A stretch of DNA of 60,043 nucleotides, filler included, from 5 parts of 5 records of this genome joined end to end with filler, not necessarily neighbours in it; one strand, 5' to 3'. Shown: positions 31,684-51,191, counted from the whole stretch's first letter. Numbers and translations: made by a program. The notes: a model not told the origin generated them from the letters alone.

Positions 31684-31717
31684 GTTTTTGCATGTTGATT
31701 GTCGTCATGTTATCAGC
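31684..31717 (-). mobile_element. Left half of an attC-like recombination site, truncated by the contig end
   Basis: Right after the stop, the minus strand reads GCTGATAAC ATGACGACAATCAACATGCAAAAAC; the first 9 nt are near-complementary to GTTATCAAC upstream of the same gene. Confidence 0.45.
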
Positions 31718-33012
31718 TTATTGTTGATTTCTCTTTTGTAAATATTTATCTAACCCATCTATACATACAGTTCTAAACATTTCAAGGTTAATACCAAGAG
31801 TTTGTAAAATTCCATTCAAAAGTTGCCATTCTGGTTTTTTAGAGTCAAGTCTTAGCCCAACTTGGGTAGAAAAATTAGGAATATTTACTTCGTCTTTTAA
31901 AATAACAGGAAGACCGTATTTTTCAACAATATCAAAATATTCATTAGTATCAAAAAAAGGACTTTTCTCCACAAATTCGTTAGTTTAATTCTGGCAGTAA
32001 GAGAATCTTCAAAATAATTATTTTCTACTAAAAAATCTTTATAGAATTTTGTAATTCCAAAGAGTATTAAAAAGAATTCATATCCATTTAGTAATTTTAT
32101 AAAATCAATATTATCAACTCCAGAAAAATATTTTGAATCAATATTACTTTTGTCTAATAATGGAATAGGAATTAAGATTTTAATATTGCCATTTTCAAAT
32201 AATTCAACCATCATATCTATTTTTAGAGAATAATAATCTGAGAAATTATTTTTTAGTATATATGAAGACCATGAAGTTTGAATATTTTTAAATCGAAAAC
32301 TAACTCCTTGATTTGAAGAATTATCGAATAAAGCTTGTTTATTTCTTGCCTTTTGAATCAAATTGTCTAAAAATGTATTTGAATGAAAGTTTTCAAACTG
32401 GAAACTTTTATAATTAGTGTATAGATATATTTCAGCAAAGGTTTCGTTTTTATCTTCTTGATTTTCTGACATAATAAATGAATTTTTTGAGAATTCATCT
32501 AAATAATCTAAATATTTCTCACCTTTTTCAAAAAGTTTTTGAATTGAGTATCTGTCAGTTTCAGGAATTGGGTCGCTTCCAGCTTGAACTCTTCTATATA
32601 TTTTTCCATCTCTAGTTAAATAAGGTGGCTCAATTCCCTCTCTTATTTGAACTAGTAAAAATCCTACATCATCACTTTTTTCAATTAGTTTAATATCAAA
32701 ATTTGGGATAGGAGTAATGTTGCTCTTAATAATATCTCTCATTTTTTCAACAGGTTTTTGAATATTTTTTAAATCAAATCCAATTAAATCATTTTCATAC
32801 AAATTCTTTCCAACTCGATTTTCTTTAATTCCAATAATATAGTAACCTCCATTTGTATTAGCAAAAGAAGCAATTGACTTTGCAATTTTAGAGTTGTTTA
32901 AAAATTCTTGTTTGTACTCTATAAACCACCCTTCACTAATTTCTTTGAGAATATCTAAATCTTCAATATGAATTTTCTGGAGTTCTTTTTCAAATGGATT
33001 ATAATTAGTCAT
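31718..33012 (-). CDS. AlbA_2/Schlafen-like DNA-binding domain protein (apparent frameshift near 31965)
   Basis: EGWFIEYKQ, IAKSIASFANTNGGYYIIGI, PY..DGKIYRR; restoring one A joins ORFs 31897-33054 and 31718-31972. Confidence 0.8.
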
Positions 33013-33023
33013 GTTTCCTCCTT

Positions 33024-33077
33024 TAGTTGTTGATAACTTATTTATAGACGTCATAAATTTCCCAAAAGTTGCATCTA
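33024..33077 (-). repeat. Conserved upstream element, copy A (GTTAT core next to the RBS; attI-like)
   Basis: Aligns by eye with 34375-34429, sharing ATAACT, TTTATA, ATAAA and AGTTGCATCTA. Confidence 0.7.
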
Positions 33078-33143
33078 TTAAACCATATAAGCTCGTTATC
33101 CGCCATAACAGTTGACTCTATTAAAACTATATACTTAACTCTA

Positions 33144-33173
33144 ATGATACCACAAATAGTACATTAATCTCAA
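33144..33173 (-). promoter_or_regulatory. Repeated promoter, copy A
   Basis: Minus strand TTGAGA-N18-TATCAT with extended TG. Confidence 0.65.
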
Positions 33174-33274
33174 GAATAAACTACTGATAAAATTCGGATA
33201 TGTCTATTTAAGAAATTAACTTAATTATATTATTTCACTAAACTATACTTTTAAGCCTTTATATGTCAAAAAAT

Positions 33275-33310
33275 AAAAAAAGATGTGCTAAGCCTCAAAC
33301 TTAACACATC
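33275..33310 (-). terminator. Repeated terminator, copy A
   Basis: GATGTGTTAAG-TTTGAGG-CTTAGCACATC followed by T7. Confidence 0.8.
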
Positions 33311-33358
33311 AATATTTCTATTAATTATAGGAAATCCTAATAACTTAAGTCCTCAGTT

Positions 33359-34354
33359 TTATAACCAGAATTCTCTTTTTCGACCTTGGTAAAATTTATC
33401 TAGAATAGCGTCAATTATTCGATAGGTTTCCAAAGCCTCTTCTCCTGAGCAAATATTTGGGCTACTAGTTATTAAATCCTCAACAACACATTTAATCATA
33501 GATTCTTGAATATATAGTGGGTCTTCAATTTTAATCTCTTGGATTACCCTACCATTTTGTCTTATAATAATTGGATTTGAACCATGGATACTAAATTCTA
33601 TTTCCCCTTTTGACCTTCTTAAAATAACTTTATCACTCTTTTTATCAGCAAGCAAATTGAAATTAAGTGTTCCAAGAATATTGTTTTCCATTTCTAATAT
33701 CGCCACAACAATCTCCTCTAATGAATGTGTCTTATTTATATTTCTGCAAAATGATTCAACATTTGCTACTTTTCCAAATAAAAAAACTAAAATATCAATC
33801 ATATGTGGAGCAATGTCAAAAAATTTCCCTCCACCTGATAATTGAGTTTTGAACATCCAGTTATGAACTTTATTATCTTCAAAAATCCGATTTAGATTAC
33901 AGTCAAAAGTATAAATTTCTCCTATAACATTAGAGTCAATTAAATCTTTGATTTTTAGGAATTTTGGATGTGCTCTTCGATAATGAGCAATATATAGAGG
34001 TACATTTTCCTTTTTAAATGCGTCAATGATTTCTAAACATTCTAATTCATTTCTTGCAAAAGGTTTTTCGAGGTAAACTGGTTTCTTATTTTTTGCGCAA
34101 AACAGTGCTTGTTCTTTATGAAGACCTGGAGGCGTTGCAATGTATACAGCATCCACTTCATTATCAAGTACCAAATCTTTATAGTTATCATAATATGTAT
34201 CTGCCAAAAATTTTTCTGCTGACTCTTTTGCTTTCTCTAAATCTCTCCTATAAATAGCTTGAATTTTACTATTTTGAACTCTTTGAAATGCCGGTCCACT
34301 TTTTGTTTGAACTACATTTCCACACCCAAGAATTCCCCACCTGATGGTCTTCAC
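33359..34354 (-). CDS. Gfo/Idh/MocA family oxidoreductase
   Basis: WGILGCG, VYIATPP, EKP, SGGG.FFD...H. Confidence 0.9.
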   Translation of the reverse strand: MKTIRWGILGCGNVVQTKSGPAFQRVQNSKIQAIYRRDLEKAKESAEKFLADTYYDNYKDLVLDNEVDAVYIATPPGLHKEQALFCAKNKKPVYLEKPFARNELECLEIIDAFKKENVPLYIAHYRRAHPKFLKIKDLIDSNVIGEIYTFDCNLNRIFEDNKVHNWMFKTQLSGGGKFFDIAPHMIDILVFLFGKVANVESFCRNINKTHSLEEIVVAILEMENNILGTLNFNLLADKKSDKVILRRSKGEIEFSIHGSNPIIIRQNGRVIQEIKIEDPLYIQESMIKCVVEDLITSSPNICSGEEALETYRIIDAILDKFYQGRKREFWL

Positions 34355-34374
34355 TTTACATCACTCCATTTTTT

Positions 34375-34429
34375 TAGTTTTACATAACTCGTTTATAAGG
34401 CGCAATAAACTACCTCATAGTTGCATCTA
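34375..34429 (-). repeat. Conserved upstream element, copy B (GTTAT core next to the RBS; attI-like)
   Basis: Aligns by eye with 33024-33077. Confidence 0.7.
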
Positions 34430-34479
34430 CCACTCTATAATGGAATGCACGCGATATAGCATTGCAATATTCAATAATA

Positions 34480-34509
34480 ATGATACCATGAACTCTTCAT
34501 AATTCTCAA
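34480..34509 (-). promoter_or_regulatory. Repeated promoter, copy B
   Basis: Minus strand TTGAGA-N18-TATCAT with extended TG. Confidence 0.65.
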
Positions 34510-34612
34510 GTGTAAGCCATTGATTTAATTTGGATTATGTTTAATAGACAATTTACTTTAATATTTTTAGGAGTTAATATGTTTGGAAATCAGTGTAAGC
34601 AGAGTAAAGAAT

Positions 34613-34650
34613 AAAAAAGAGGCATTATGCTTCAAACATAACACCTCTCA
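34613..34650 (-). terminator. Repeated terminator, copy B
   Basis: GAGGTGTTATG-TTTGAAG-CATAATGCCTC followed by T6. Confidence 0.8.
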
Positions 34651-34676
34651 ATAAATTTATTATATTTAATAAGAAA

Positions 34677-35285
34677 CTATTCCAACTCTTCAGTTTTATA
34701 AACTGTATATCCTTCATAAAAATAACTAGCATCTATACCCTTCATATAGATTTCTCTATCATCAATTTTATCAGTCAGCGCTTCTTTTAACAGAAATTTA
34801 ATCTCAATATCTTTTATAGGACTACGTTCCATCGCTAGCAGATAGTCAGCTTTATCTACATTGCTCCAATCAATAACCTGACCTAGTTCCTTCTTCAAAA
34901 TCAAGTCAAGCCAAACCCTTGTGCTTCTCCCATTTCCCTCTCGAAAAGGGTGAGCAATATTCATCTCAACATATTTCTCTATAATCTCGTTATAGTTTAA
35001 TTGTGGCATTTTATTTATATTATCAAGAGCCGCTTCTAGGTACATTACAGGTGCAAATCTGAAATTTCCCTTAGCTATATTTACATTTCTAATCTCACCA
35101 GCAAATTCATAAATATCATCAAATAAAAACCTGTGAATTTCAGAAAGTGCTTTAAATGTTCCAGCTTCTAATGTGTTTAGAAATCCAGTTTCAAAAAGCT
35201 TTTTAGCTTTCTTCTTACTTAATTTTTCTTCAATTCTTGCAAGTTCAACGGAATTTTTAATTCCCAATTTATTTTCTAAAATCAT
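34677..35285 (-). CDS. fic: Fic protein (adenylyltransferase), class III with C-terminal inhibitory motif
   Basis: HPFREGNGRSTR active-site loop; C-terminal SYFYEG matches (S/T)xxxE(G/N). Confidence 0.92.
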   Translation of the reverse strand: MILENKLGIKNSVELARIEEKLSKKKAKKLFETGFLNTLEAGTFKALSEIHRFLFDDIYEFAGEIRNVNIAKGNFRFAPVMYLEAALDNINKMPQLNYNEIIEKYVEMNIAHPFREGNGRSTRVWLDLILKKELGQVIDWSNVDKADYLLAMERSPIKDIEIKFLLKEALTDKIDDREIYMKGIDASYFYEGYTVYKTEELE

Positions 35286-35343
35286 ATTTAACCCTTCCTA
35301 AAACTAAACAATGTTTTCTAAGAACCACTACTATACTATATAT

Positions 35344-35372
35344 ATGATACCATACCTCAATTTCCTACTCAA
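35344..35372 (-). promoter_or_regulatory. Repeated promoter, copy C
   Basis: Minus strand TTGAGT-N17-TATCAT with extended TG. Confidence 0.65.
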
Positions 35373-35390
35373 GAGTAAACTTTATCACAT

Positions 35391-35428
35391 AAAAAGAAGC
35401 ATTATGCTTCAAACATAACACCTCTCAA
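35391..35428 (-). terminator. Repeated terminator, copy C
   Basis: Nearly identical to copy B (one substitution in the stem). Confidence 0.8.
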
Positions 35429-35433
35429 AATTT

Positions 35434-35865
35434 CTAATCTCTTGATATCGTCCCTTTCAAAATCATCGCTTCTTCATTTTCGAATATAGCCATAGCAGTA
35501 TTCATCTTCTTAAATCCTAACTTAGCATAAAAGCCCTCTTTCCCAGGGCTTGCATAAAGTATGATTTTCTTATGCCCATTTGATAACTCTACTAATTTAT
35601 TAACTATATTTTTGCCTATTCTCTGACCTTGATAATCTGGATGAATAGCTATATCACAAATATATGAACAATCCCCACCATCTGCTAAAGCCCTTCCTAC
35701 TCCAACTAACTTATCACCATCATAAGCAAATACATTATACATACTGTTGGAAAATGTAATTTTAAGTTTCTCAACTACCTTCTCTCCAAGTGGTGCAATT
35801 CTATATAGTTCCTCTAGCTCAAGCCAATCAATATTTTTTTCGTTTATAGTGTATTTTATACTCAT
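35434..35865 (-). CDS. GNAT family N-acetyltransferase
   Basis: LVGVGRALADG, IHPDYQGQRIG, FYAKLGF; RBS before ATG at 35865. Confidence 0.9.
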   Translation of the reverse strand: MSIKYTINEKNIDWLELEELYRIAPLGEKVVEKLKITFSNSMYNVFAYDGDKLVGVGRALADGGDCSYICDIAIHPDYQGQRIGKNIVNKLVELSNGHKKIILYASPGKEGFYAKLGFKKMNTAMAIFENEEAMILKGTISRD

Positions 35866-36021
35866 TTTCCAACTCCTTTCATACATTTGTATATTATAAA
35901 AATCTCTTATTTCATTCACAGTAAAAAGCATCTTTGAATAAAAAGAAGAATTAAGAATTAGCCTTAACTCCTTATCATATTCTCATATAAACTACCATGT
36001 ACGAATGTTATTTATAACATC

Positions 36022-36366
36022 CTATACTTTCTTCATATAATTCAAAGGCGCCCACGATTCAATATTTGCATTCCCTTCTTTATATCCCCATATCCATCCA
36101 TTTAACTCTTTTATCTCAACTACAACTTCGCCAATATCTAAATTAAACTCAGCTGCATCATAATCCTCTATCACTCTGCTACCATTCAGTATCTGCTTTG
36201 GAACCCATCCTTCATTTGTAGAACTCTTACAGAACACCCAATTTGGCCAATCTCCATCTGGATTGGACTCCTCTATACGCTTAACACTATCGCCTTTATT
36301 AAGCTTAATTGGATTAGTAAACTCTGTTCTATATTCCTTTGTAACTTCATATTTATTAGTATTCAT
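36022..36366 (-). CDS. Tandem SH3-domain protein
   Basis: WPNWVFC..EGWVP and GWIWG..SWAP SH3-like repeats. Confidence 0.75.
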   Translation of the reverse strand: MNTNKYEVTKEYRTEFTNPIKLNKGDSVKRIEESNPDGDWPNWVFCKSSTNEGWVPKQILNGSRVIEDYDAAEFNLDIGEVVVEIKELNGWIWGYKEGNANIESWAPLNYMKKV

Positions 36367-36453
36367 ATATCTTATCCTTTCTAGTTTATATATACGTATG
36401 TTATTTACATTTCAAAAGCTCCCTGCTTAAGTTAAGAGGGGCTGTGGGAGTTG

Positions 36454-36912
36454 TCATAACTTATATCGAAAAACTTCTGTTTTCTGCCCTATATCATCCA
36501 TTGTAATTAGCAATGATTCCCAACCTAACCGTTTATAATAATCTGATGCAAACTCAGTTCTCAAGTATAGATAGTCATATTCTAGAGAACGAGTCTTATC
36601 AATTATACTATGTACCAGTAGCTTCCCTACGCCTTTACTCCTAAAGGGTTCATCCACATATAAAGAACCAAGCCACGGCGAGAATTTAAGTGTTTTTAAA
36701 TCATTCTCAAGCAAGGATACAGAACCTAGACAAACATTATTCTCAACTGCAATCAATGTCATAGGAATATTATCACCCTTGAATAAAACAAGTATTCCCT
36801 CAATCTGCTTTATACTTAGGTTATCACGTACACCTTTTACAAACTCATAATAGATCCATTTTGCAACTATGGGTATAAACTGTTTATTATTACTTAAGTT
36901 TAATATCTCCAT
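36454..36912 (-). CDS. GNAT family N-acetyltransferase
   Basis: PWLGSLYV..FRSKGVG, YYKRLGW. Confidence 0.9.
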   Translation of the reverse strand: MEILNLSNNKQFIPIVAKWIYYEFVKGVRDNLSIKQIEGILVLFKGDNIPMTLIAVENNVCLGSVSLLENDLKTLKFSPWLGSLYVDEPFRSKGVGKLLVHSIIDKTRSLEYDYLYLRTEFASDYYKRLGWESLLITMDDIGQKTEVFRYKL

Positions 36913-36936
36913 ATTATCTCCCCCATATGAATAGTT

Positions 36937-37803
36937 TTACGCCTCTGCTCCAACTTCCTTTGGTTTAGGTTTAAATATTGTAAATGTTAACGCAAGTATT
37001 ATAACTGCTAATCCTATATAAAAGTTTAACTCTAGTGTCTCATTCAAGATAATAACTGATAGAATCGATGCAATAATTGGCTTTAGATAAAACATAGACG
37101 AACCAGCAGCAGCTGAAACATATCGAAGTCCGTAGAAATATAACAGATACGCAACTCCTGTAGCTACAAGTGATATATATAGCAGTGGAACTATATTTGA
37201 TGATAAGTTATTAATTGTGAAGTTTCGTACAAATATTAACTGAACAAATGCACCAGCTAAGAACATAACTCCTGTTGCGGCAAATGCACCGTATTTGATT
37301 ACATATTTCTTTGAGCCAACTACGTAGTATGCAAAGAATATTGCAGCAATTAGCATAAGTGCAGGGCCTTTTACATCTGTAAATGCAACCTTATCAAAAC
37401 CAAAGTTAAGTATCCATACACCAGAAAATCCTAAAATAATTCCAATTATTTTTCTTATTCCTAATTTTTCTTTGAAGAAAATCACTGCAAACATTGCAGT
37501 AAAAATTGGATTAATACTGAAAATTACAGCTCCTTTTGAAGCCTCTAAATAATCCAAACTAATATGAAATGCCCCAAGAGCTATTGTAACTCCAGCAACA
37601 CCATACCAGCATAACATAGGTAAATCTCTCTTTTCCATTTTTCTTATGCTCTTTATACCAATAACTGATATAACAATACCACTTATGAAAAATCTAAGGA
37701 ACGAAAGAAATATTACATCAATATCTCCATGTAAAAGTTTCGAAGCAACCTCTACAGTACTAAACAGTAAAATTGTTGTAAATATTGCCAAATAGTATTT
37801 CAT
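36937..37803 (-). CDS. EamA/DMT family transporter
   Basis: About 10 TM helices, duplicated EamA pattern (LRF, P.F..FA...KEK). Confidence 0.88.
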   Translation of the reverse strand: MKYYLAIFTTILLFSTVEVASKLLHGDIDVIFLSFLRFFISGIVISVIGIKSIRKMEKRDLPMLCWYGVAGVTIALGAFHISLDYLEASKGAVIFSINPIFTAMFAVIFFKEKLGIRKIIGIILGFSGVWILNFGFDKVAFTDVKGPALMLIAAIFFAYYVVGSKKYVIKYGAFAATGVMFLAGAFVQLIFVRNFTINNLSSNIVPLLYISLVATGVAYLLYFYGLRYVSAAAGSSMFYLKPIIASILSVIILNETLELNFYIGLAVIILALTFTIFKPKPKEVGAEA

Positions 37804-37969
37804 TTTCTTAACTCCTCTTTATTATATTATAGCTCTAATTTTATCATTTAATGTAATATACATCAAGTCAAAGTTAATTTAAGAGCATGAGAATTATGAT
37901 TTTTATCAATTTGATTAAATTGATAAAAAGGTATATAATAAACTAAATAAAATTAGGGAGTGTGATATT

Positions 37970-38851
37970 ATGTTTGAATTAAGACACGTTAAGGGAAATA
38001 CCTACTACATAGAATCCCCTGCAAAGATAGGTCTCTATATCGACGGAACAAATGCTTATCTTATCGATAGCGGAAATGACAAGGACGCAGGTAGAAAAGT
38101 AATGAAACTCCTGAGAGAAAAAGAGTTAAATTTACAAATGATTATAAATACACATTCAAATGCCGACCATATTGGTGGAAATAAATTCCTACAAGATAGA
38201 ACTAACTGTAGAATTGCCGCAACTGAAAAAGAAGCTATGTTTATAAAATATCCAGAGTTGGAAGCGTCTTTTCTATATGGAGGTTATCAATATAATGCTT
38301 TAAAGAATAAATTCCTGCAAGCACAACCGTCAAATGTAACAGACATTATTGTAGCTGGGCGATCAATAGAATGTTTTGATACAATCGAATTGGCAGGTCA
38401 CTTTCATGACATGATAGCTATAGAAACTCCTGACAATGTAATATTTCTTGCAGACTCACTATTTAGCAAATTCATAGTTGATAAATATAGTATTTTCTAC
38501 CTTTTTGATGTAGAAGGTCATCTTGATACACTAGACATGCTTAAAGAATTAGAAGCAGATGTGTTTATTCCAAGTCATGGGGAATCTACAACAGATATTA
38601 GCGAACTAATTGAAATCAATCAAAATAAAATTAACGAAGTAATAGAAGACATAAAAAAGGTATGTATGGAAGGAAAAGTTATAGATGATATAATTGCCGA
38701 AATTAGCAATTTGCATGGTATAACTATAGACGCTAATCAATATGTTTTAATTGGTAGCTGTATAAAATCATATCTTAGCTATATGGAAAACAGTTCAATG
38801 CTGGAAATCGTATTTAATAATAATAAAATGTTCTGGAAAACCAAACAATAA
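37970..38851 (+). CDS. Metallo-beta-lactamase-fold hydrolase
   Basis: LIDSG, THSNADHIGG, GH, D, PSHG motifs. Confidence 0.88.
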   Translation: MFELRHVKGNTYYIESPAKIGLYIDGTNAYLIDSGNDKDAGRKVMKLLREKELNLQMIINTHSNADHIGGNKFLQDRTNCRIAATEKEAMFIKYPELEASFLYGGYQYNALKNKFLQAQPSNVTDIIVAGRSIECFDTIELAGHFHDMIAIETPDNVIFLADSLFSKFIVDKYSIFYLFDVEGHLDTLDMLKELEADVFIPSHGESTTDISELIEINQNKINEVIEDIKKVCMEGKVIDDIIAEISNLHGITIDANQYVLIGSCIKSYLSYMENSSMLEIVFNNNKMFWKTKQ

Positions 38852-38868
38852 ATACAAAAAATGTGGCA

Positions 38869-38911
38869 GCACGTTATAGGTAAACACAGTTCCTGTTTAC
38901 ACATAACGTGC
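38869..38911. repeat. Hairpin between convergent genes (probable terminator)
   Basis: GCACGTTAT..GTAAACA-loop-TGTTTAC..ATAACGTGC. Confidence 0.6.
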
Positions 38912-39032
38912 CTTATTATATCTTATATCTAAATTTTACTTTTTCTTTCATAATTATTAGTATTCCAAAACCACAGGTTAATAGTATCTCATTCGTTATT
39001 AAGGAGGTAACTAAATGATTATGAAAAAAGTC

Positions 39033-39767
39033 CTACTCTCCATAATACTCAGGTGCAGTTTTTAAAGTTTTGAAAAACTCATAATCGTGAGCAAATACAA
39101 GCTTCGCATCATACTTATCTTTTAACTTTCTTACCTTTTCTATAGATTTGAAATAACTCAAACTATCATATAATAAACCTGAAGCTTTTGCAGGAGGGCC
39201 AAAAATAGCTTCAGTGTATATACAATCTTGTGGAAGAATAAACGTTCCATCTTTCTTAGTATGAACAACCATTCCCAATAGTCCAGGTGTATGTCCAGGT
39301 AAATTAATTATCTCAACACCAGGTGCTAATTCAAAATCTTCCTCAACTAAATGATATTGATTCACTTCAACATCTAAATCAGCTTTTGGGACATAGATAT
39401 CAGCATGTTTGAATAGGTGTAAATTACCCGCATGGTCTAGATGCATATGTGAAATTACTACCTTAGTAATATCTTCTGGTTTTACACCGCATAGAGCTAA
39501 TTGATTCTCAATTCTCTCATCATCAGTTTGATATAACGGATATACTTCCTGTAGATGCTCAGGCCAATAACCATTCATTGCATCTGGATGACTTCCAACA
39601 TCGTATAAGATATACTCACCTTCATTTTCTATCAAAAAGCACATAACTGGTAATTTAATCCATTCATTTTCAACCTTTGGATTACTTTTAGTACCTATAG
39701 TTGCACCAGCTTGCACATTATTTTTATCAGTCTCCAAGTACCCGGTATTAAGTACATAAATCTTCAT
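39033..39767 (-). CDS. N-acyl homoserine lactonase family protein (AiiA/AhlS-like MBL fold)
   Basis: SHMHLDHAG, LPGHTPG, D..Y, FAHD. Confidence 0.85.
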   Translation of the reverse strand: MKIYVLNTGYLETDKNNVQAGATIGTKSNPKVENEWIKLPVMCFLIENEGEYILYDVGSHPDAMNGYWPEHLQEVYPLYQTDDERIENQLALCGVKPEDITKVVISHMHLDHAGNLHLFKHADIYVPKADLDVEVNQYHLVEEDFELAPGVEIINLPGHTPGLLGMVVHTKKDGTFILPQDCIYTEAIFGPPAKASGLLYDSLSYFKSIEKVRKLKDKYDAKLVFAHDYEFFKTLKTAPEYYGE

Positions 39768-39787
39768 CTTTCACAACTCCTTCTAAA

Positions 39788-39935
39788 TTATTTTCTAAGT
39801 CGAAATGCTTTAATTCGACTTCGTTTAGAAAATCATTCTATGTTATTTTCTAAGTCAAAATGTTTTAATTTGACTTTGTTAAGAAAATCATTACTAAATT
39901 ATTTTCTAAATCCCACATTAAATTTTAATTGGATA
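39788..39935. repeat. Tandem palindromic repeats with a 55-56 bp period (two full copies plus one degenerate)
   Basis: TTATTTTCTAA starts at 39788, 39843 and 39899; each full copy is an internal inverted repeat. Confidence 0.8.
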
Positions 39936-40103
39936 AATTCTAACATTTGCCAATTACTAAAACAAATATATGTTTTGTATGTCATTATTCATAAGAAATA
40001 TAATTGAGTGAATATTTAATGTTGCTTTTATGTACATTACACGTTATAATTAGTTAATAAATAAGTATTAGATTTGATAAAATATCGATTATTGGGAGGA
40101 AAG

Positions 40104-40835
40104 ATGAATCTTAAATACACTGAGTATGAAGGTTGGGTTTATCCGCTAGAAGGTTATAGTTATAATGGTAAATCAGGGGATAAATTGTTTCTTTTTGAGA
40201 AGGAAGGGGCAAAAAGTAGCTATATACTTGAAAAAGGTAAAAAAAGAGTCACTGCACACAAAAATGGTTTTAAAATCTCAATGGCAAAATTAAAGAAGAA
40301 GCTTGAAGATAAAAAAAGATACATGTTTTATATAGAGGCAAAGGAAAAGAATCAAAGTAATAAAACACTTAGCTTCTTTAATGCTTGGTCATATGAAAAG
40401 GAAAACTCTCTAAAGATGATAGAGGTACAAGTTGAGAGAGAGGAACGAAGTCGTAGAAGACAGCGTAGAAGAGATGAACTCCTTGATTCGTATCATGAAA
40501 AGGCAGAAGAACTAATAAAAGCAATACATGATATGAATAAGGTAAATGATTATGAGAAGATTCTAAGTGATGAATTTCCTAAACTTTTACAAATAGAAAA
40601 GATTATAGAGAATGGATATTTTGCACTTAATACACATGAGAAGATGAAACGTAAATCTCTAAAGACAAGAAAAGCTATGGCAAAAGAGAGACATGACGAA
40701 ATTAGAGTTCGGATAAAAGAGGAGTTGGATAAAAATCCAAAAGTTAGTGTTAAACAATTAGCAACAATTTTAGGTGTAAGTAGAGAGTATCTATATAAAC
40801 ATAAATTACATGAATTTATAAAAGAAATGAGATAA
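40104..40835 (+). CDS. Hypothetical protein with coiled-coil and C-terminal HTH
   Basis: RBS GGAGG; C-terminal SVKQLATILGVSREYLYK helix-turn-helix. Confidence 0.65.
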   Translation: MNLKYTEYEGWVYPLEGYSYNGKSGDKLFLFEKEGAKSSYILEKGKKRVTAHKNGFKISMAKLKKKLEDKKRYMFYIEAKEKNQSNKTLSFFNAWSYEKENSLKMIEVQVEREERSRRRQRRRDELLDSYHEKAEELIKAIHDMNKVNDYEKILSDEFPKLLQIEKIIENGYFALNTHEKMKRKSLKTRKAMAKERHDEIRVRIKEELDKNPKVSVKQLATILGVSREYLYKHKLHEFIKEMR

Positions 40836-40981
40836 TAAAGTAATCTGACTTAGAGAATTTAAAGTTTTAGTTACTTTTTTATGCCAAGCAACTCGCAATG
40901 TTTACTCTTAAAAGTTCAATATTATTCTAAATATTAATGTCTTCAATAAGAGGTCTTGCAGTAAATGTTTAAAAAAATTTA

Positions 40982-41010
40982 TTGACAATTTTTTCTCAAT
41001 CTTATATACT
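40982..41010 (+). promoter_or_regulatory. sigma-70 promoter
   Basis: TTGACA-N17-TATACT. Confidence 0.75.
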
Positions 41011-41040
41011 CTTATTAAGATATAAATAAAAACTAAATAA

Positions 41041-41056
41041 AAAACTTCAGGGCAGG
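41041..41056 (+). ncRNA. Probable 5' start of an FMN riboswitch (truncated by the contig end)
   Basis: CTTCAGGGCAGG matches the conserved RFN start (cuuc.gggcagggugaaauuccc) about 30 nt after a strong promoter; only 12 informative nt are visible. Confidence 0.5.
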
Positions 41057-41156: not shown

Positions 41157-41891
41157 CTTGAAGGAGACAGGAATAAATGCCTCATTAACGAAACCGCCCT
41201 TAAACAGTTTGGATGGAAAACATGGCAAGGAAAATATTTTAATAAATCAGAAAGATTTGAGGGTTATGAAATAATAGGTCTTTTAGAGGACTTTCATTTT
41301 GGCTCATTGCACGAAAAAATAGATCCGATTGTTATCTCATCTAACGATTCCCAGAAAAGTTTTATGTCGCTCAGGATTTCAGGCAACAATATAGAAGAGA
41401 CAATAAGCTCTATTGAAAATACATGGAACGAAATAGAACCCAATGTCCCTCTCAATTATACTTTCTATGATACCTGGTTTGATTCCATGTATAAAAAAGA
41501 AGAACAACTTGGCAAGATGGTTTCAACATTTGCCATTTTGGCTATTATCATCTCTTGTTTGGGAATTTTCGGACAAGCAATACTAACTACCACAAACCGA
41601 ATAAAAGAAATTGGAGTTCGAAAAGTAATAGGTGCAAAATCGAAAGAGATTGTTGGTTTAATTAACAGTCAATTTATCCTTTGGGTTTTACTATCCATGC
41701 TGTGTTCCGCACCACTCGGTTTTACAATAATGAAAAGATGGTTGGGGAATTTTGCTTACAAAACCAATATGAGCTGGTGGGTTTTTGCCCTGGCCGGAGG
41801 AATTGCCCTGATAATCGCTTTGGTTACTGTTAGCTGGCAGAGTTGGAGGGCAGCTAATAGAAATCCTGTTGAAGCTTTGAGGTATGAATAA
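41157..41891 (+). CDS. ABC transporter permease, MacB/FtsX family (5'-partial)
   Basis: DFHFGSLH, KEIGVRKVIGA, NPVEALRYE. Confidence 0.9.
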   Translation, partial: LEGDRNKCLINETALKQFGWKTWQGKYFNKSERFEGYEIIGLLEDFHFGSLHEKIDPIVISSNDSQKSFMSLRISGNNIEETISSIENTWNEIEPNVPLNYTFYDTWFDSMYKKEEQLGKMVSTFAILAIIISCLGIFGQAILTTTNRIKEIGVRKVIGAKSKEIVGLINSQFILWVLLSMLCSAPLGFTIMKRWLGNFAYKTNMSWWVFALAGGIALIIALVTVSWQSWRAANRNPVEALRYE

Positions 41892-41902
41892 AAAAACACA
41901 CA

Positions 41903-44275
41903 ATGGAATTATTTAAGAATATCAAATTTATTTTTCGAAGCTTTAATAAAAATAAGGTTATTACAACTTTTAATATAGTAGGTTTAACAATTGGTCTAAC
42001 TGTTAGCATCCTAATATTTTCTTTTGTAATGAAAGAAAAATCAATCGATAAGTTTATCCCCGATTTAGAAAACATTTATTGTCTTACCAACAAAGGAGAC
42101 ACTTATCTCTCGCAAAAAATGGTAAACCTGGTAAAAGAAGAAATTCCAGAAGTTGAAAAAATCACATACTGTTCTGAAGATTGGTCGCCGCAAGTATTTC
42201 TCCTTAATGGACAAAAAAGATTCAAGTTAAATGAATTAATTACTGCTGATTCTTGTTTCTTTCGGGTTTTCCAGTTTAAACCCTTATGGGGAGATCCTAA
42301 ATCAGCCTTAAATTCTGCAAACAAGCTTGTGATTACTCATTCACTATCTAAAAAAATATTTGGCGATCAAAACCCTGTTGGAAAAATAGTAACTTACAAT
42401 TCAACTTTCTTACAAGATGAAAATCTAGAAATAGCTGCTGTTATCGAAGATCTGCCAGAGGAATCATCCTGGCATTTTGAAGCAATCCTTTCTTTTGAGA
42501 CCAATTATAAAATCGATTGGTATGTTAAAAATATTTCTTATTGGGGAACTCAAAATTATAAAGGGTTTGTGCGTCTTAACGACAAGGTTTCTGAAGAACA
42601 GGTAATCTCCAAATTATCAAACATATCCCTCGATAAAGTTCCAAGCCAAATGAAGCCTGAAATTAAATTTGGTTTATTTCGCTTTTCAGATGTCTATTTT
42701 GATCTTCCTGAACTAACTTTTCTAAAGCATGGCAACCATTTGTCAGTTTCAATAATTGGAATAACAGGTATATTAATTTTCCTGCTTGCGTGCGTTAATT
42801 ATATCAATATGGTTACAGCCCAACGCGAAAAAAGGATTAAAAATGTGGGGGTTTTTAAAATGCTCGGGAGCAACCGAAAAAATGTAATCCAATTGATAAC
42901 GACAGAGTCGGCTGCGAGTATTTTTATTTCTATAATAATTTCGTTGCTATTAACAATCATAATTATTCCTGTTTACAATAACCTCTCTTCATCAGATTAC
43001 ACATTGCGTGAGTTTATGTCCACAAACTACATTCTTTTGTTAATCGCTGTTTGTGTTATAATGATTTTAATAACCGGATTAATTCCCGGCTTTATTTATA
43101 GTAAGAACACTCCTATTTTATTGTTGAACAAACAGCGTGGAAACAGAGGCATAAACCTATCACGAAATGGTCTACTGGTTTTTCAATTTTTTGTAACTAT
43201 TGCATTAATTGCTTCGGTAATTACCATAAATAAACAAAGTAGTTATTTGAATGATCAGGACTTAGGTTTTAAACAAAATAATATTGTTTATGCCAACACA
43301 AACGATGATATTTCCAGACAAATTGATGCGTTTAAAAATGGATTAGAGCAACTTTCAGGAATTGCAGATTTTACATTTTCAGAGAGTTTATTGATTGATA
43401 ACGGACAAAATTGGGGGCAAGCCATATTAAATGGAGAGGATAGGTACGATGTAAAATTCTCAAAAATTTCTGTTAGCCAAAATTTCTTTAATTTCTTTGA
43501 TATTCCTTTACAGGAAGGACAAGGATTCAATGAGAACTCAAATACAAATAAGGATTATATATTTAACCAAACAGCAAAAAACAAATTCAACATAAATAAC
43601 ATTGAGCAAGCAAAAATAGCGACCTCTGATTCAAAAAAAGGACATATAGTAGGCATTGTTAAAGATTATAATTTCGAGTCTCTTCATGTACCCATCAGAG
43701 CAGCCGGATTTACATGTTCTGCTGATTGCGATCAAGTTATTTACCTTAAGTTAAACAGCAAGAACTCAGAAAACATCGCCCACACAATTAAACAAGTCGA
43801 AAATCTTTGGGATAACCATTCCCCGGATTTCCCAATGGAATTAAAATTTCTCGACCAAAAATGGGAAGCAAAATATTATAAGGATAAACAATTTCAAAAA
43901 ATTCTGCTATATACCACCATTATTTCATTGTTGCTTTCTTGTATCGGTTTAATCGGGCTAACATTTTTTGTGATAGAGAAAAGAACAAAAGAAATCGGCA
44001 TACGAAAGGTGAATGGCGCAAAAATCTCTGAGATTCTTTCCATCGTTAATTTAGATTTTATAAAATGGGTATTTCTAGCATTTATCTTAGCAACTCCGGT
44101 AGCTTGGTATTCCATGCACCAATGGCTTCAGGGCTTCGCTTATAAAACTGGTTTGAGTTGGTGGATTTTTCTCCTGGCCGGATTTTTAGCCTTAGGAATT
44201 GCCCTATTAACTGTTAGTTGGCAGAGTTGGCGAGCTGCAAGGATGAATCCGGTAGAAGCTTTAAGAAACGAATAA
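41903..44275 (+). CDS. ABC transporter permease, MacB/FtsX family (Bacteroidota duplicated type)
   Basis: ACVNYIN, DLGF, KEIGIRKVNGA, NPVEALRNE. Confidence 0.92.
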   Translation: MELFKNIKFIFRSFNKNKVITTFNIVGLTIGLTVSILIFSFVMKEKSIDKFIPDLENIYCLTNKGDTYLSQKMVNLVKEEIPEVEKITYCSEDWSPQVFLLNGQKRFKLNELITADSCFFRVFQFKPLWGDPKSALNSANKLVITHSLSKKIFGDQNPVGKIVTYNSTFLQDENLEIAAVIEDLPEESSWHFEAILSFETNYKIDWYVKNISYWGTQNYKGFVRLNDKVSEEQVISKLSNISLDKVPSQMKPEIKFGLFRFSDVYFDLPELTFLKHGNHLSVSIIGITGILIFLLACVNYINMVTAQREKRIKNVGVFKMLGSNRKNVIQLITTESAASIFISIIISLLLTIIIIPVYNNLSSSDYTLREFMSTNYILLLIAVCVIMILITGLIPGFIYSKNTPILLLNKQRGNRGINLSRNGLLVFQFFVTIALIASVITINKQSSYLNDQDLGFKQNNIVYANTNDDISRQIDAFKNGLEQLSGIADFTFSESLLIDNGQNWGQAILNGEDRYDVKFSKISVSQNFFNFFDIPLQEGQGFNENSNTNKDYIFNQTAKNKFNINNIEQAKIATSDSKKGHIVGIVKDYNFESLHVPIRAAGFTCSADCDQVIYLKLNSKNSENIAHTIKQVENLWDNHSPDFPMELKFLDQKWEAKYYKDKQFQKILLYTTIISLLLSCIGLIGLTFFVIEKRTKEIGIRKVNGAKISEILSIVNLDFIKWVFLAFILATPVAWYSMHQWLQGFAYKTGLSWWIFLLAGFLALGIALLTVSWQSWRAARMNPVEALRNE

Positions 44276-44326
44276 TACATCTTATTAATAATGCACTATA
44301 CTATATTTTTTTAACGAGTAAGCCCT

Positions 44327-45901
44327 ATGAGAATACTAATTCTATGTTTCCTATTTCTATCAATACATTATACAAGTTTTAGTCAATATAATGATTCTTT
44401 AGGGCCGCCGCCAATTATACCTTATTGGGCTTTTGGCCACTGGGTTTGGGAAGATGAATTCAACACAGATTCAGCAGTATACAAATTAGTTGATGGATAC
44501 CTTAATCACGATATACCTGTAAATGCTATAATTATTGATAGTCCATGGATGAGACAGTACAATGATTTTACCTGGGATAAATCCCGCTACCATAATCCAC
44601 AATTACTAATTGACAGCTTAAATGCTTCTGGGATAAGAACTCTTGCATTTTATACGGGATGCCTTAATAGTTCATCCTATTCAGGTTCTAAAGAAAAATG
44701 TGTTACGTACGATTATGCTGTTTCAAACAATTTTTGTGTAAACGGGAACAATGAATCGAAATGGTTTAAAGGACCGGGAGTACATATCGATATGACCAAA
44801 CGTGCAGCGCGAGATTGGTGGCATAATCAAATTGGTGAACTGCATAAGATGAAATTTAATGGTGCTAAAATTGATTTTGGCTTTGCATGGTTCGGGGACA
44901 CAATAGAAACATCAGTAGGGAATGTATCGAAGCGTGAATTTGCATATCATTATTACGGTGATGCATTTGATTACCATACATCCCAGGATCCTGAATTTAT
45001 TTCAATGACCTATGCATGGTCTGGTTTAGGGTTGATGGGTTTTCCTTCTAAAAGCCATGTTAACTGGGTAGGTGATTTCACCGGAGACTGGAACGGAATT
45101 AACAAACAATTAAAGAACATTTATCTTTCTGCTAATTATGGTTTCTCAGGAATAGGGTGTGAGATTGGCGGGTATTGGAAAACGCCATCCAATAAAACAG
45201 AATTTATCAGGTATGCACAAATGGCCAGCCTATGCCCAATAATGATTAACGGTGGTTCTTTGGGGGCATTTGAACATCATATACCCTGGTACCACGACAG
45301 CGAGACCGTTGATATTTACAGAGAATTTGTTAACCTACACCAATCGTTGGCTCCATACTTATTTAGCGCTAGTGTTGACGCGAATCTAAACCACTCAACT
45401 ATAATTACAAATGCAAACTATGCAGAAAAAAGCCATTTTCTGGGCGATCAGCTTTTCGTTAAGGTTATTACGGACTCATTAGAAACAACTACCGTTAACC
45501 TTCCTGGCACAAGTAATTGGATTGATTGGTTTGATCTTCACCAATATAATGCAAAAGAAACTGTAGAGAAACATTACAATTTAGCATCATACCCGCTATT
45601 TGTACGAGAAGGAACTATTTTGCCTATACTGGAAGATACCATTGTTACATTTTATATTTTTCCTGGTAACGATTTTGGTTACACATTTCATCAACCAATA
45701 AATAATGGCATTGACTATGCTGATATTCAGTTCTCATATAGCCAGGAAAAACATATGTTAGAAGTGAAATCGGAACAACAAATCGAATTTCATTTCAAAA
45801 TTTTTCAACCTAAAACAACGGAACATCGCCACAAAGATGGAGACATCAGTAATTGGCATTACATAAACAAAAAAGGAAACAATTTTTCAATTAAAATATA
45901 A
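44327..45901 (+). CDS. Secreted glycoside hydrolase family 31
   Basis: Signal peptide; P.WAFG.W, IIDSPW, KIDFG (nucleophile), WVGD (acid/base), PLFVREG. Confidence 0.82.
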   Translation: MRILILCFLFLSIHYTSFSQYNDSLGPPPIIPYWAFGHWVWEDEFNTDSAVYKLVDGYLNHDIPVNAIIIDSPWMRQYNDFTWDKSRYHNPQLLIDSLNASGIRTLAFYTGCLNSSSYSGSKEKCVTYDYAVSNNFCVNGNNESKWFKGPGVHIDMTKRAARDWWHNQIGELHKMKFNGAKIDFGFAWFGDTIETSVGNVSKREFAYHYYGDAFDYHTSQDPEFISMTYAWSGLGLMGFPSKSHVNWVGDFTGDWNGINKQLKNIYLSANYGFSGIGCEIGGYWKTPSNKTEFIRYAQMASLCPIMINGGSLGAFEHHIPWYHDSETVDIYREFVNLHQSLAPYLFSASVDANLNHSTIITNANYAEKSHFLGDQLFVKVITDSLETTTVNLPGTSNWIDWFDLHQYNAKETVEKHYNLASYPLFVREGTILPILEDTIVTFYIFPGNDFGYTFHQPINNGIDYADIQFSYSQEKHMLEVKSEQQIEFHFKIFQPKTTEHRHKDGDISNWHYINKKGNNFSIKI

Positions 45902-45913
45902 AAGTTACGATTC

Positions 45914-47486
45914 ATGAACTTTCTGCTCATATTCTTTAGAGATTTAAAACGAAATAAGACCATTACATTTATAAATACCGGTGGTTTGATTATTGGCATA
46001 TTAAGTACATTGTTAATACTGGAATATGTTTATTACCACCGTAGTTTTGATAGTTATCATGAAAATGCAGACAACGTTTACCGAATTGTCTACAATCGAT
46101 ATGGAAATGAGGGCTTAATGTGGAAAACCACTAATTTCTACACACCGGCTGCTCCTTATCTCAAAACTAACTTTGCGGAAGTAGAAGACTACGCATTATT
46201 GTTTAGAAAATTCAACATCATAGTTAACCAGTTAGATGCACAAGGTAATCCTTTAAATTTCAGGGAAAATAAAAGTTATTATGCAAATAGTTCTCTTTTC
46301 AGCATATTTGATTTCCCGCTAATTATTGGAGACAAGAATTGTCTTGACAATCCCAATACTGTAGCCATATCGGACAAACTAAGCAAAAAATATTTCGATT
46401 CTGATAACCCAATTGGCAAAACACTTAAAATTAATGGTAAGGAAACGTATGTTGTTACAGCAGTTTTTAAAACAATACCAAGCAATTCTCATTTACAATC
46501 AGATTTATTTTTTTCTGTTGAGACATTATTAAAAAGAAGGCCGCAAATGATAAACGACTGGATTGGTGACGGTGCACTTCCCTACCTAAAACTAAAGAAT
46601 GGAACAGATTATAAGGCATTCGAAAAAAAAGCCTTCCCACAAATGATCCAAGAAAATTATGCAGACTATCTGACACGCTCTCAACAAAAAGATTCAGTTT
46701 ATTTACAACCCATAAAATCGATTCATCTGCAATCTAACCTTGAATACGAACTTGAACCTCCTGGTAACGGCAAAGCCATTTCCATATTATTTATCTTTTC
46801 TATATTTTTTATTATTGTTGCCTGGATAAATTATGCCAACCTGGCCAGTGTAAAGTATTTTGAGCGGGCAAAAGAAATAAGCATAAAAAAAGTAAATGGC
46901 CTTTCCAGATCGAAAATTATTACCCAACTACTTTCCGAAGCAGTTATATTCAACCTCTTCTGTTATTTATTTGCTATTGTAATATTTATATTGATCAACC
47001 CACGTTTTCTTGAATTAACCCAAATACAAACCAACAGTAAAATTTTACCCATATCATTTTGGATATTTTTTAGCATTTCAATTTGTTTAGGGGTAATTAT
47101 CTCAAACATTCACCCGGCCTTTGTTTTAACCACATATAATCCGGCTAAAGTATTAAAAGGAAAATTTAGCTCTTCAAAAAGTGGGATTCTATTCAGAAAG
47201 ACGTTGGTAACCACTCAATTCATAATATCTATATTACTACTTGTTGGTTCTATTATAGCCTATAAACAAATTAATTTTCTTATTGATAAGGATATGGGCA
47301 TCAATTGTAAAAACAAGGTGGCAATAAAAATACCCAGGGCCAATGGAGAAAGGCAATTACATGATAAAAAAGTATTAAGTTTTAAAGACGAACTAAGTAA
47401 ATACCCCGGGATTGGAAAGCTCACTTATTGTTCTGATTTGCCGGGTAATGAGATCAATGGTTTTTTTGGAGGTTACAAAAAGGGGG
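45914..47486 (+). CDS. ABC transporter permease, MacB/FtsX family (3'-partial)
   Basis: SFDSYH, LQPIKSIHL.S, AWINY.NL, RAKEI. Confidence 0.9.
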
Positions 47487-47586: not shown

Positions 47587-47701
47587 AAAAATCTTTTCAA
47601 ATATTGAAGGGAAAGAGATGAATTTAAATAGGACTAATAATCATAATATAATGGTAAAATAGAATAGAATTTTTGAGACAGTAGTGATTTGAACAGAAAA
47701 T

Positions 47702-47730
47702 AAAAAAGGCGGGACATATATCCCGCCTTT
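47702..47730 (-). terminator. Terminator of hcp
   Basis: AAAGGCGGGA/TCCCGCCTTT stem; T-tract on the minus strand. Confidence 0.8.
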
Positions 47731-47736
47731 GCTAAT

Positions 47737-49401
47737 TTATGCCGCAACATCCTGCACATCATCACCAAGAATAGCCTGCAAATCCTCATCCGCTGTTGTG
47801 ATCGGTTTGAGATCAAAATTCTCTACGAGAAAGTTGAGGATATTGGGACTGATAAAGGCTGGCAGTGTGGGTCCAAGCCGAATCCCTTTAATACCCAGAG
47901 ACAGGAGGGAGAGCAATATCACAACCGCTTTTTGTTCGTACCAGGACAAAATCAGGGATAAAGGCAGATCATTCACACCGCATTCAAAGACATCTGCCAA
48001 AGCCTGTGCGATTTTTATGGCTGAAAAGGCATCGTTGCATTGACCTACATCCAAAAGTCGTGGTATGCCGCCAATCTCGCCGAGATCCAGGTGATTAAAC
48101 CGGAATTTACCACAGGCAAGGGTTAAAATAATTGTGTCCTTTGGCGTTTTTTCTACCAGTTCGGTATAGTAATTACGTCCCGGTTTGGCACCATCACAAC
48201 CACCAACCAGAAAAACGTGCTTGATGGCGCCGCCTTTAATGGCACCCACAACTTTGTCAGCTACACTCATGACGGCATTGTGGGCAAAACCGGTCATCAG
48301 CGTGCCACCTTCTTTTTCTTCAAAGCCACCTAATTCCAGAGCTTTATTTATAACCGGGGTGAAATCATAGTCATCTATATGGTTAACACCAGGCCAGGCA
48401 ACCAGTTCACTGGTGAAAACGCGATCTATATAGGAATCCCGCGGTTTTTGAATACAATTGGTGTTGAACAGAATCGCAGCCGGGATGCCATCAAACTCTT
48501 TTTGTTGATTCTGCCAGGCTGTACCATAATGTCCGACAAGATGTTTATATTTTTTCAAACCAGGGTAGCCATGTGCCGGCAACATCTCGCCGTGGGTGTA
48601 AATGTTGATACCTTTACCTTCTGTCTGCTGTAACAGTTTTTCCAGTGAGACCATGTCATGACCGGTAAGAATGATAGCCGGCCCTTTTTTCAGAGCAGTT
48701 GATACGGTGGTGGGTTCCGGATGACCATATGTGGTTGTATGACCTGTATCCAGAAGCTCCATTGTACGGATATTCACCTGGCCGCAGCGCATATTTAAAT
48801 CCACAAGTTTTTCTACGCTTATGGACGAATCATTGAGAGCAGCCAAAGCCTCATGAAAAAAGCCGAATACTGTGTCATCGGTTTGGCCTAATATGGAGGC
48901 GTGATCTGCATAGGCTGCCATGCCTTTCAAGCCATATACAAGTAATTCCTGCAAAGAACGAATATCCTCATTAGCCTGATTGGTTAAAATACCGATACCC
49001 GCAATAACCGGGACATCCTCCAGTGTTGCCTCGATTGTATCTTTCGGTTCATACCGGGTTGAATGGGGCCACTCCTGTTCGGCATTGTCTGTTTCACTTG
49101 CCGATTTAAGCAATTCTACCGCTTTGTCCCGAATGTTTTTTGCTTCATCTATCCATTGTTTCATTCGCTCAGGATCAAAATCGACATTGGTAATTGTAGT
49201 AAATAATGCTTCCACAGTAAATCGATCTATGGTGGCATCAACAATATTTTGTTTTCGTAATTTATCAGCCAGGTAACCGATTCCCTTGAGCTGGTATATT
49301 AAAATGTCCTGTAGATCTGCTACTTCCGGTTGTTTACCACATACGCCGATGCTGTCGCATCCTTTTCCGCCTTTGGCCTGTTCGCATTGAAAACAAAACA
49401 T
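47737..49401 (-). CDS. hcp: Hydroxylamine reductase (hybrid cluster protein)
   Basis: MFCFQCEQ..GC..GVCGK, TGHD, HGEMLPAHGYP, GGCDG, GQCNDA, SWYEQKA. Confidence 0.97.
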   Translation of the reverse strand: MFCFQCEQAKGGKGCDSIGVCGKQPEVADLQDILIYQLKGIGYLADKLRKQNIVDATIDRFTVEALFTTITNVDFDPERMKQWIDEAKNIRDKAVELLKSASETDNAEQEWPHSTRYEPKDTIEATLEDVPVIAGIGILTNQANEDIRSLQELLVYGLKGMAAYADHASILGQTDDTVFGFFHEALAALNDSSISVEKLVDLNMRCGQVNIRTMELLDTGHTTTYGHPEPTTVSTALKKGPAIILTGHDMVSLEKLLQQTEGKGINIYTHGEMLPAHGYPGLKKYKHLVGHYGTAWQNQQKEFDGIPAAILFNTNCIQKPRDSYIDRVFTSELVAWPGVNHIDDYDFTPVINKALELGGFEEKEGGTLMTGFAHNAVMSVADKVVGAIKGGAIKHVFLVGGCDGAKPGRNYYTELVEKTPKDTIILTLACGKFRFNHLDLGEIGGIPRLLDVGQCNDAFSAIKIAQALADVFECGVNDLPLSLILSWYEQKAVVILLSLLSLGIKGIRLGPTLPAFISPNILNFLVENFDLKPITTADEDLQAILGDDVQDVAA

Positions 49402-49564
49402 ACGAATTCCTTCCTTTATTTGTAAAAAAGTTATAAATTATGATTTAGATCTGATAGCTTAAAGTTGTGAGGCAATTCCCCTAAAGTGACCGCCTGTAAC
49501 CTGAATCAGAATAGAATATCTTTGTCTTATCTGGTTCAAATATAGCAGAATTCCTATGCTTTTC

Positions 49565-51134: not shown

Positions 51135-51191
51135 TCTTTGCAGGGATATTCACTATTTCTGAAATGTAATTGATAAAAGTTACTGCTGTTT

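Follow-up and report, generated by a model that had tools for sequence, protein, structure and literature searches.

A minus-strand array of unrelated genes separated by related terminator-promoter spacers, with a possible origin by recombination between the spacers

Genes and spacers of the array

The analysed DNA, a stretch of 60,043 bases referred to here as the window, consists of five contigs joined via N44-TTAATTAATTAA-N44 linkers (contigs 1-5 at positions 1-31583, 31684-41056, 41157-47486, 47587-53254 and 53355-60043). Contig 2, which is 9.4 kb long, carries seven co-oriented genes on its minus strand: an EamA-family transporter gene at the upstream flank, followed by six mutually unrelated genes that form an array, separated by five intergenic spacers (IG1 to IG5, of which IG5 is the first to be transcribed). 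A preliminary description had presented this locus as an integron-like array of self-expressing modules. The observation on which it was based is confirmed as real and beyond chance, and the integron interpretation is unsupported.

In the direction of transcription, the EamA gene (36937-37803; Pfam PF00892, E 2e-42) is followed after 24 nucleotides (nt) by the gene for a GNAT acetyltransferase (GNAT2, 36454-36912; PF00583), which is probably co-transcribed with it. The next genes are a small one with an SH3_2 domain (36022-36366; PF07653, E 2e-9), a further GNAT acetyltransferase gene (GNAT1, 35434-35865; PF13673 and PF00583), the start of which at 35865 has AAGGAG just upstream, the Fic gene (34677-35285; NCBIfam NF046029, 311.9 bits for a cut-off of 230), and a Gfo/Idh/MocA oxidoreductase gene (33359-34354; PF01408, PF22725 and PF02894), hereafter Gfo. 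The last unit is an AlbA_2/Schlafen-domain gene (31718-33012; PF04326, E 4e-19, the match being recorded over 33012-31897), and the contig stops 34 nt beyond it. All lie on the minus strand and the Pfam matches agree with the six unrelated, co-oriented families listed in the preliminary description; the GC content at their third codon positions (GC3) ranges from 0.167 to 0.304. In the window, the AlbA_2 gene is frameshifted within an A7 run at 31945-31951. The corresponding contig of a public sequencing run, possibly the source of contig 2, has one additional A after 31951 and another after 40970, and the frame is open over 431 amino acids (aa) once one base is added, so the frameshift probably arose as an assembly or homopolymer error and does not mark a pseudogene. 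A reading of the array as a defence system was rejected, as Fic is its sole match in the defence library PADLOC (as candidate PDC-S04).

A predicted terminator hairpin is present in every spacer, and a promoter motif in IG1, IG2 and IG3. IG1 and IG2 are full modules. In IG1 (33013-33371), a terminator (33310-33282) is followed by a stretch of ~95 nt, a promoter (33174-33144) and a leader of ~130 nt, which ends in TAAGTTAT..AACTAAA ahead of the ribosome-binding site (RBS). IG2 (34355-34708), the first ~20 nt of which are the native 3' end of Fic, contains a terminator (34649-34617), a promoter (34510-34480) and a leader with AGTTATGTAAAACT (34389-34376). IG3 (35286-35433) is a short module, in which the terminator (35426-35394) leads directly to the promoter (35373-35344) and a short leader. 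IG4 (35866-36021) comprises one copy of an 18-nt repeat (36014-35997), a hairpin followed by a T-run (35972-35946) and a promoter-like stretch related to IG3. Finally, IG5 (36367-36464) has ATAAGTTATGACAACT over the stop codon of GNAT2 (36464-36449), a hairpin with T-run (36443-36417) and the other copy of the 18-nt repeat (36407-36390), which falls inside a promoter-like site.

The terminators of IG1, IG2 and IG3, all with T-runs, fold better than shuffled sequences (z -4.35, -4.14 and -2.81, respectively), and the terminator-like hairpin of IG4 reaches a z of -2.25. These 13-15-bp stems with their T-runs are the only strong hairpins of the spacers. When the three stems are compared, 39 of 39 pair cells are paired, with two pairs altered on both sides in a compensatory manner and four altered on one side; sliding the partners lowers the pairing to 38-64%, while the covariation, taken from three sequences, is non-significant in a shuffle control (59/500). 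The window has three matches to the extended -10 promoter CTTGAG-N17/18-TGGTATCAT, each of them within the array, for an expectation of 0.00 (100 shuffles). Related terminators and promoters at these positions had been reported in the preliminary description and are borne out, as is a ~55-bp element in the leaders (33077-33024 compared with 34429-34375), in which 41 of 55 columns are identical. Because of the compensatory stem changes, the fold scores and the non-random promoter motif, the spacers are apparently maintained as regulatory DNA. We infer from these features that the promoters and terminators are active, and they support a view of each array gene as a separate, potentially self-expressing unit with its own predicted promoter and intrinsic terminator.

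Other functions of the spacers were also considered. A search of Rfam at E values up to 1 gave no match. A riboswitch-like leader was rejected because the leaders are no better folded than shuffles (z 0.76 and -1.31), and a hidden small gene in IG1 or IG2 because no open reading frame (ORF) is conserved in any frame. About 30 nt past the IG2 terminator there is a degenerate second copy of its 3' arm (34585-34559, compared with 34659-34633), 27 nt long and 70% complementary to the 5' arm of that terminator, which may be the scar of an earlier duplication at this site.

Spacer homology, gene origins and possible routes of assembly

IG1 (33013-33358) and IG2 (34355-34676) are homologous over their whole length, with 64% identity over 362 columns (E 1e-21). 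IG2 and IG3 share 86% identity over 59 columns (BLAST), and their terminators are identical in 43 of 45 columns, including an exact match of 28 nt. All five spacers were aligned pairwise (10 pairs, 200 shuffles per pair), and the local-alignment scores of neighbours were the high ones: z 20.9 for IG1-IG2, 14.0 for IG2-IG3, 4.6 for IG3-IG4 and 4.5 for IG4-IG5, with none of the 200 shuffles as high in any of these four pairs. Among the six non-adjacent pairs, five score at chance level (z -0.7 to 0.9), the exception being IG1-IG3 with a marginal z of 2.9 (5/200). The similarity is thus a chain, greatest between neighbours, which is a new observation relative to the preliminary description.

Since adjacent spacers are similar, each of the four internal genes is bracketed by a direct repeat. 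The repeat around Gfo is the ~350-nt module of IG1 and IG2, that around Fic is the 45-nt terminator of IG2 and IG3, and that around GNAT1 comprises ~90 nt of terminator tail and promoter in IG3 and IG4. SH3 lies between the two 18-nt copies (36407-36390 and 36014-35997, 16/18 identical), which enclose just the RBS, the ORF and 7 nt. The homology of IG1 and IG2 starts at the 12-mer TTATAAAACTGA, the IG1 copy of which (33364-33353) overlaps the stop codon of Gfo. In IG2, this 12-mer belongs to Fic itself and is the native end of its coding sequence, as seen in an alignment with the Fic genes of an Enterococcus plasmid and of a phage scaffold. As it is native Fic coding sequence there, its presence in IG1 suggests that IG1 was copied from a spacer formerly located downstream of a Fic gene.

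The genes themselves appear to have separate histories and unrelated origins. Fic is a protein adenylyltransferase of NmFic type (class III) with the motif HPFREGNGRSTR, and it matches 862 plasmid records, most of them from Enterococcus (785 Enterococcus plasmid records). Identity to the Enterococcus plasmid Fic genes is ~70% at the DNA level and confined exactly to the ORF, which is also the only part of the contig matched by the plasmid and phage collections. Species genomes were compared at 80 loci kept for Fic and 80 for Gfo. The Fic loci have 72-80% protein identity and belong to several phyla (Lachnospiraceae, Erysipelotrichaceae, Paenibacillus, a Spirochaetes metagenome-assembled genome (MAG), Gastranaerophilales, Synergistaceae, a Thiotrichaceae MAG and Eggerthellaceae), a distribution that marks Fic as a widely transferred single gene of striking promiscuity. 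The best relatives of Gfo in species genomes, of at most 41% identity, are spread over many phyla. No close relative of EamA was found, with two distant matches and none in 172 Acholeplasmataceae genomes. No other array gene adjoins any of the 80 Fic and 80 Gfo loci, except for a GNAT of 34% identity at one of them (L064), and BLAST detected no spacer module in the 80 Fic loci. Because the Fic loci do not have the module and the loci of both genes lack the array neighbours, the spacer frame belongs to the host and has not travelled with the cargo.

The spacers are best read from their sequence as paralogous copies of one terminator-promoter(-leader) module, and we give roughly even chances to the view that the locus is a small, variable island made up of single-gene transcription units, in which genes are gained and lost by recombination between the regulatory spacers. 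The spacers would then be the crossover points at which the genes are shuffled. A circle or fragment bearing a gene together with some spacer sequence would enter a resident spacer through a Campbell-type insertion, and the incoming gene would end up bracketed by a direct repeat, already supplied with a promoter and a terminator. Events of this type would give rise to repeats of variable length, to neighbouring spacers that are most alike, and to a newcomer that is both insulated and expressed. They would proceed by spacer recombination without a dedicated integrase, as proposed for the cassettes of the promoter and stem-loop repeats called PeSLs, discussed below. The variable length of the repeats is expected of recombination through homology and not of a fixed core site; their span of 18 to ~350 nt is more in keeping with homologous or illegitimate recombination.

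The original interpretation was one of integron-like capture, in which an unseen recombinase would insert promoterless ORFs at a core TAAGTTAT / AGTTAT-N-AACT, placed at the 3' end of a multiplied platform. GNAT and Fic/Doc genes are common integron cargo, and the core site is a short AGTT/AACT inverted repeat. There are six copies of TAAGTTAT on the minus strand of the window and three of them are at array boundaries, at 36463 (the GNAT2 stop codon), 33347 (just after the Gfo stop codon) and 33040 (before the AlbA_2 RBS), a placement that is suggestive, but of a motif chosen after looking. AGTTAT-N3-4-AACT has three copies in the window, all in the array, where 0.62 are expected, and one of them is the site overlapping a GNAT stop codon that had been pointed out before (36461-36449). 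However, the motif is post hoc, 4 of 100 shuffles reach three copies, and two of the three lie in mutually homologous spacers, which leaves one independent match. Moreover, gene junctions had been predicted at G/TTAT, and several observations speak against this: the homology of IG1 and IG2 continues 11-14 nt past AGTTAT, up to AACTAAA, the homologous stretches of IG2 and IG3 have left ends that do not coincide with a GTTAT, and there is no core site at the left end of IG2 or before the RBS in IG3, IG4 and IG5. The repeats of variable length around the genes also disagree with it.

The other components of an integron were also sought. The 11 proteins of contig 2 include no member of an integrase, tyrosine recombinase, other recombinase or transposase family, in agreement with the preliminary description, and neither do the 30 other proteins of the 60-kb window; as the contig ends 34 nt after AlbA_2, a recombinase gene could lie beyond. 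The attC sites of integrons are imperfect palindromes of 55-141 nt with R''/L'' and L'/R' boxes (R' = GTTRRRY), and integron cassettes are mostly promoterless and read from a common promoter, Pc. No attC-like palindrome was detected in the array, where the folds of whole spacer modules are no more stable than those of shuffled sequences, whichever strand is taken (z -1.55 to -0.4), and a crude scan of the window for R and L boxes gave six R-box pairs, none with matching L boxes and none in the array. Its genes have predicted terminators (IG1-IG5) and promoter motifs (IG1-IG3) of their own instead of a common Pc. In addition, none of the Firmicutes and Tenericutes genomes in the survey of Cury et al. 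2016 (PMC4889954) had a complete integron. Integron-like capture is, on these grounds, very improbable. What stands of the multiplied platform holding captured genes is the set of spacers with related terminators, promoters and leaders and the transfer of Fic, and what is left unsupported is the attI-like, site-specific capture. A broader idea is that of a gene-capture platform of a novel type in a Gram-positive-type bacterium, with foreign ORFs installed singly at the TAAGTTAT core into a multiplying terminator-promoter-leader "expression socket". The capture would be due to an unseen recombinase past the contig end or to host recombination, and the system would in function be an integron, with every cassette having its own promoter and terminator; we consider this version, too, very improbable.

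The exact 8-nt direct repeat TAAGTTAT that flanks the IG1 module (33347 and 33040) resembles a target-site duplication, and would be accounted for if the ~310-nt module were a non-autonomous element, similar to a miniature inverted-repeat transposable element (MITE), with outward promoter and terminator and inserted between genes that were already there. MITEs are recognized by terminal inverted repeats, target-site duplications and many dispersed copies. The module has no terminal inverted repeats at its ends and the duplication-like 8-mer is found at IG1 only, IG2 having no flanking duplication. The remaining 50 kb of the window contains no copy, the spacers have no match of at least 85% likeness in any further contig of the source run, and no transposase was found among the window proteins, so that such an origin is quite unlikely.

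Local duplication or gene conversion of the regulatory DNA alone is a less remote alternative, although still an unlikely one. A good terminator-promoter unit would have spread or been homogenized for insulated and perhaps co-regulated expression, with the genes already present or arriving separately, and with no role for the spacers in their gain. Copying or conversion would give the greatest similarity between neighbouring spacers, as observed, no copy was found beyond the array in anything searched, and the common promoter and conserved leader (41/55 columns) could serve a shared regulation. The reuse of promoters before unrelated genes, reported for prokaryotes (PMC3575422), also counts in its favour. 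It leaves unexplained why the copied segments start and end so near the gene ends, why an apparent remnant of the Fic 3' end lies at the Gfo stop codon in IG1, and why the 18-nt repeat is so tightly placed around SH3 and its RBS. Furthermore, copying a 350-nt block between unrelated genes while leaving them undisturbed would itself be a recombination event at a spacer.

Further copies of the module and other arrangements of the locus were searched for in several collections. The exact 24-nt terminator core had no match in a genome contig collection, and a degenerate form of it none in a viral contig collection; its single match in metagenome contigs (L181) was rejected as a chance palindrome in a high-GC contig. 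BLAST of IG2 against 175 Acholeplasmataceae genomes, probably the wrong clade, returned short AT-rich matches only, and BLAST of all spacers against the 60-kb window found no copy outside the array. None of ten contig-2 proteins is present exactly in a collection of 15 billion proteins, and the searches turned up neither a close relative nor a second strain. The contigs of the public run that contains contig 2, and is possibly its source, were compared at a likeness of at least 85%. They agree on one arrangement, free of joints inside the array, the spacers are matched by no second contig, and the bins over 32936-35752 are covered by the one contig alone, at a depth of 30.3-31.3. Joints from 36024 and 31739 to ~39850 were not accepted as rearrangements, as their short sides (35 and 22 nt) were taken as matches to the repeat at 39.8 kb described below. 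As far as these data reach, the element occurs in these copies only, an outcome that the preliminary description had itself named as one that would refute its reading, in favour of a simple local duplication.

Several points weigh against gene gain and loss by recombination at the spacers. Gene gain, loss or exchange at the spacers is a deduction from one arrangement; that the source-run contigs agree on it is weak evidence either way, given that contigs drop rare variants. The exchange between IG1 and IG2 would have to be old, or to have involved a diverged donor, because 64% identity is too diverged for efficient recombination now. There are only ~2.5 clear copies of the spacer, plus two weak ones (IG4 and IG5), and the 18-nt repeat around SH3 rests on a z of 4.5 obtained with simple shuffles and 10 pairs tested. 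Local duplication or gene conversion could also have produced the chain of neighbours without contributing to the gain of genes, and the activity of the promoters and terminators is a prediction made from the DNA alone.

The contig and its probable host

The five contigs of the window do not look like one genome, several organisms being apparently mixed. Tetranucleotide usage has a correlation of r 0.86 between the two halves of contig 1, and for contig 2 of r 0.32-0.35 with contig 1 and 0.77 with contig 5, the genes of which include a chemotaxis receptor and a GGDEF-EAL protein. A further group is formed by contigs 3 and 4 (r 0.75), and contig 4 has 41.6% GC. The GC3 of contig-2 genes is 0.17-0.30, versus 0.169 +/- 0.016 for those of contig 1. 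The rpoB gene of contig 1 is 86% identical to that of an uncultured Mariniplasma (Acholeplasmataceae) MAG, and as the contigs differ in composition it is unsafe to take a taxon label for the array from contig 1. The host of the array is an uncultured bacterium of low GC content, and its placement in the Bacillota, probable but uncertain, follows from the best relatives of a metallo-beta-lactamase-fold (MBL) protein of contig 2, which are labelled Bacillota (50% identity, sampled phylum). This protein, MBL1, has 50% as its best identity in 401 sampled genomes, and no synteny was found in 11 genomes of the best-match family.

Some features of the window lie apart from the array. At 39785-39897, between a lactonase-like MBL gene and the next gene, a ~56-nt unit that contains a palindrome, TTTTCTAAGTCGAAATG...ATTCGACTT..TTTAGAAAA, is repeated in tandem (~2.5 copies). 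This segment is matched by many other contigs of the source run, of depth 27.8-39.5, and the depth of its bin is 147.6 versus 30.3 elsewhere on contig 2; the unit has no copy in the other window contigs. It looks, from this distribution, like a dispersed repeat of the same genome, similar to repetitive extragenic palindromes (REP-like). The last gene of contig 2 (40104-40835) encodes a 243-aa protein rich in Lys, Arg and Glu with a C-terminal helix-turn-helix, and its DUF6262 match is weak and under the Pfam cut-off (E 2.6e-4). A near-consensus promoter, TTGACA-17-TATACT (40982-41010), points out of the end of the contig. In contig 4, two overlapping ORFs (49762-50553 and 50505-51134) correspond to the N- and C-terminal domains of a Gfo/Idh/MocA protein, a split that may be another frameshift or assembly error.

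Comparison with known systems

Phage morons are promoter-gene-terminator units located between genes, and as stand-alone accessory transcription units they are like those of the array. Morons are not known to share homologous flanks with one another, and contig 2 differs from their setting in having no prophage context. A closer likeness is found in the putative mobile promoters described in connection with promoter reuse, where highly similar promoter-bearing DNA precedes unrelated genes of one genome (PMC3575422). The unit of the array differs from what is described there in that it also includes the preceding terminator and a long leader, and in that its copies are in tandem instead of scattered.

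Sedentary chromosomal integron arrays and CALINs, in which the cassettes are bounded by attC sites (Cury et al. 2016, PMC4889954), share with the array the co-oriented, unrelated small accessory genes, of GNAT and Fic type among others, and the related repeats between genes, which overlap stop codons. In contrast, the array has no IntI, attI or attC-type folded palindrome in the window searched. Its genes each have their own predicted promoter and terminator, unlike integron cassettes, which are read from Pc, and its repeats are regulatory modules of varying extent. For the likely host phylum, the 2016 survey lists no complete integrons.

The closest described system is that of the PeSLs of T4-type phages, where they occur in hyperplastic genome regions (Arbiol et al. 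2010, PMC2839356; Comeau et al. 2014, PMC4122927). PeSLs are composite promoter and stem-loop repeats that flank variable ORFs, recombine and form mini-circles, with no integrase known. As in the array, repeats with a stem-loop terminator and a sigma-70-type promoter lie between small, unrelated, non-essential and co-oriented genes, these genes are bracketed by copies of the repeat, and no integrase is present in either. Recombination from repeat to repeat, excising or inserting a gene together with a repeat, has been proposed for PeSLs; the shuffling at the present locus would be of that kind. The array has the repeated terminator and sigma-70-like promoter in its gaps, and its motifs flank variable genes of unrelated origin, from six families without shared neighbours in 160 loci. 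It differs in its setting, a bacterial contig whose proteins include no phage structural, replication or hallmark families and of which the phage collection matches the Fic ORF only, and also in its copies, which are few and far more diverged (64%). Its full module is ~330 nt long with a 130-nt leader. PeSLs are probably shorter than this.

If recombination between the spacers has built the array, modular shuffling of the PeSL type would not be confined to T4-type phages and would also occur in bacterial chromosomes. It would then offer a general, integrase-free way of acquiring foreign genes that arrive already insulated and expressed, and would help to explain small accessory or defence-type islands in lineages without integrons, such as Bacillota and Mollicutes. 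With few, diverged copies and no comparison, this locus alone is insufficient to show a general mechanism. Set beside the known systems, the array works like PeSLs and is not a member of the phage-specific PeSL family.

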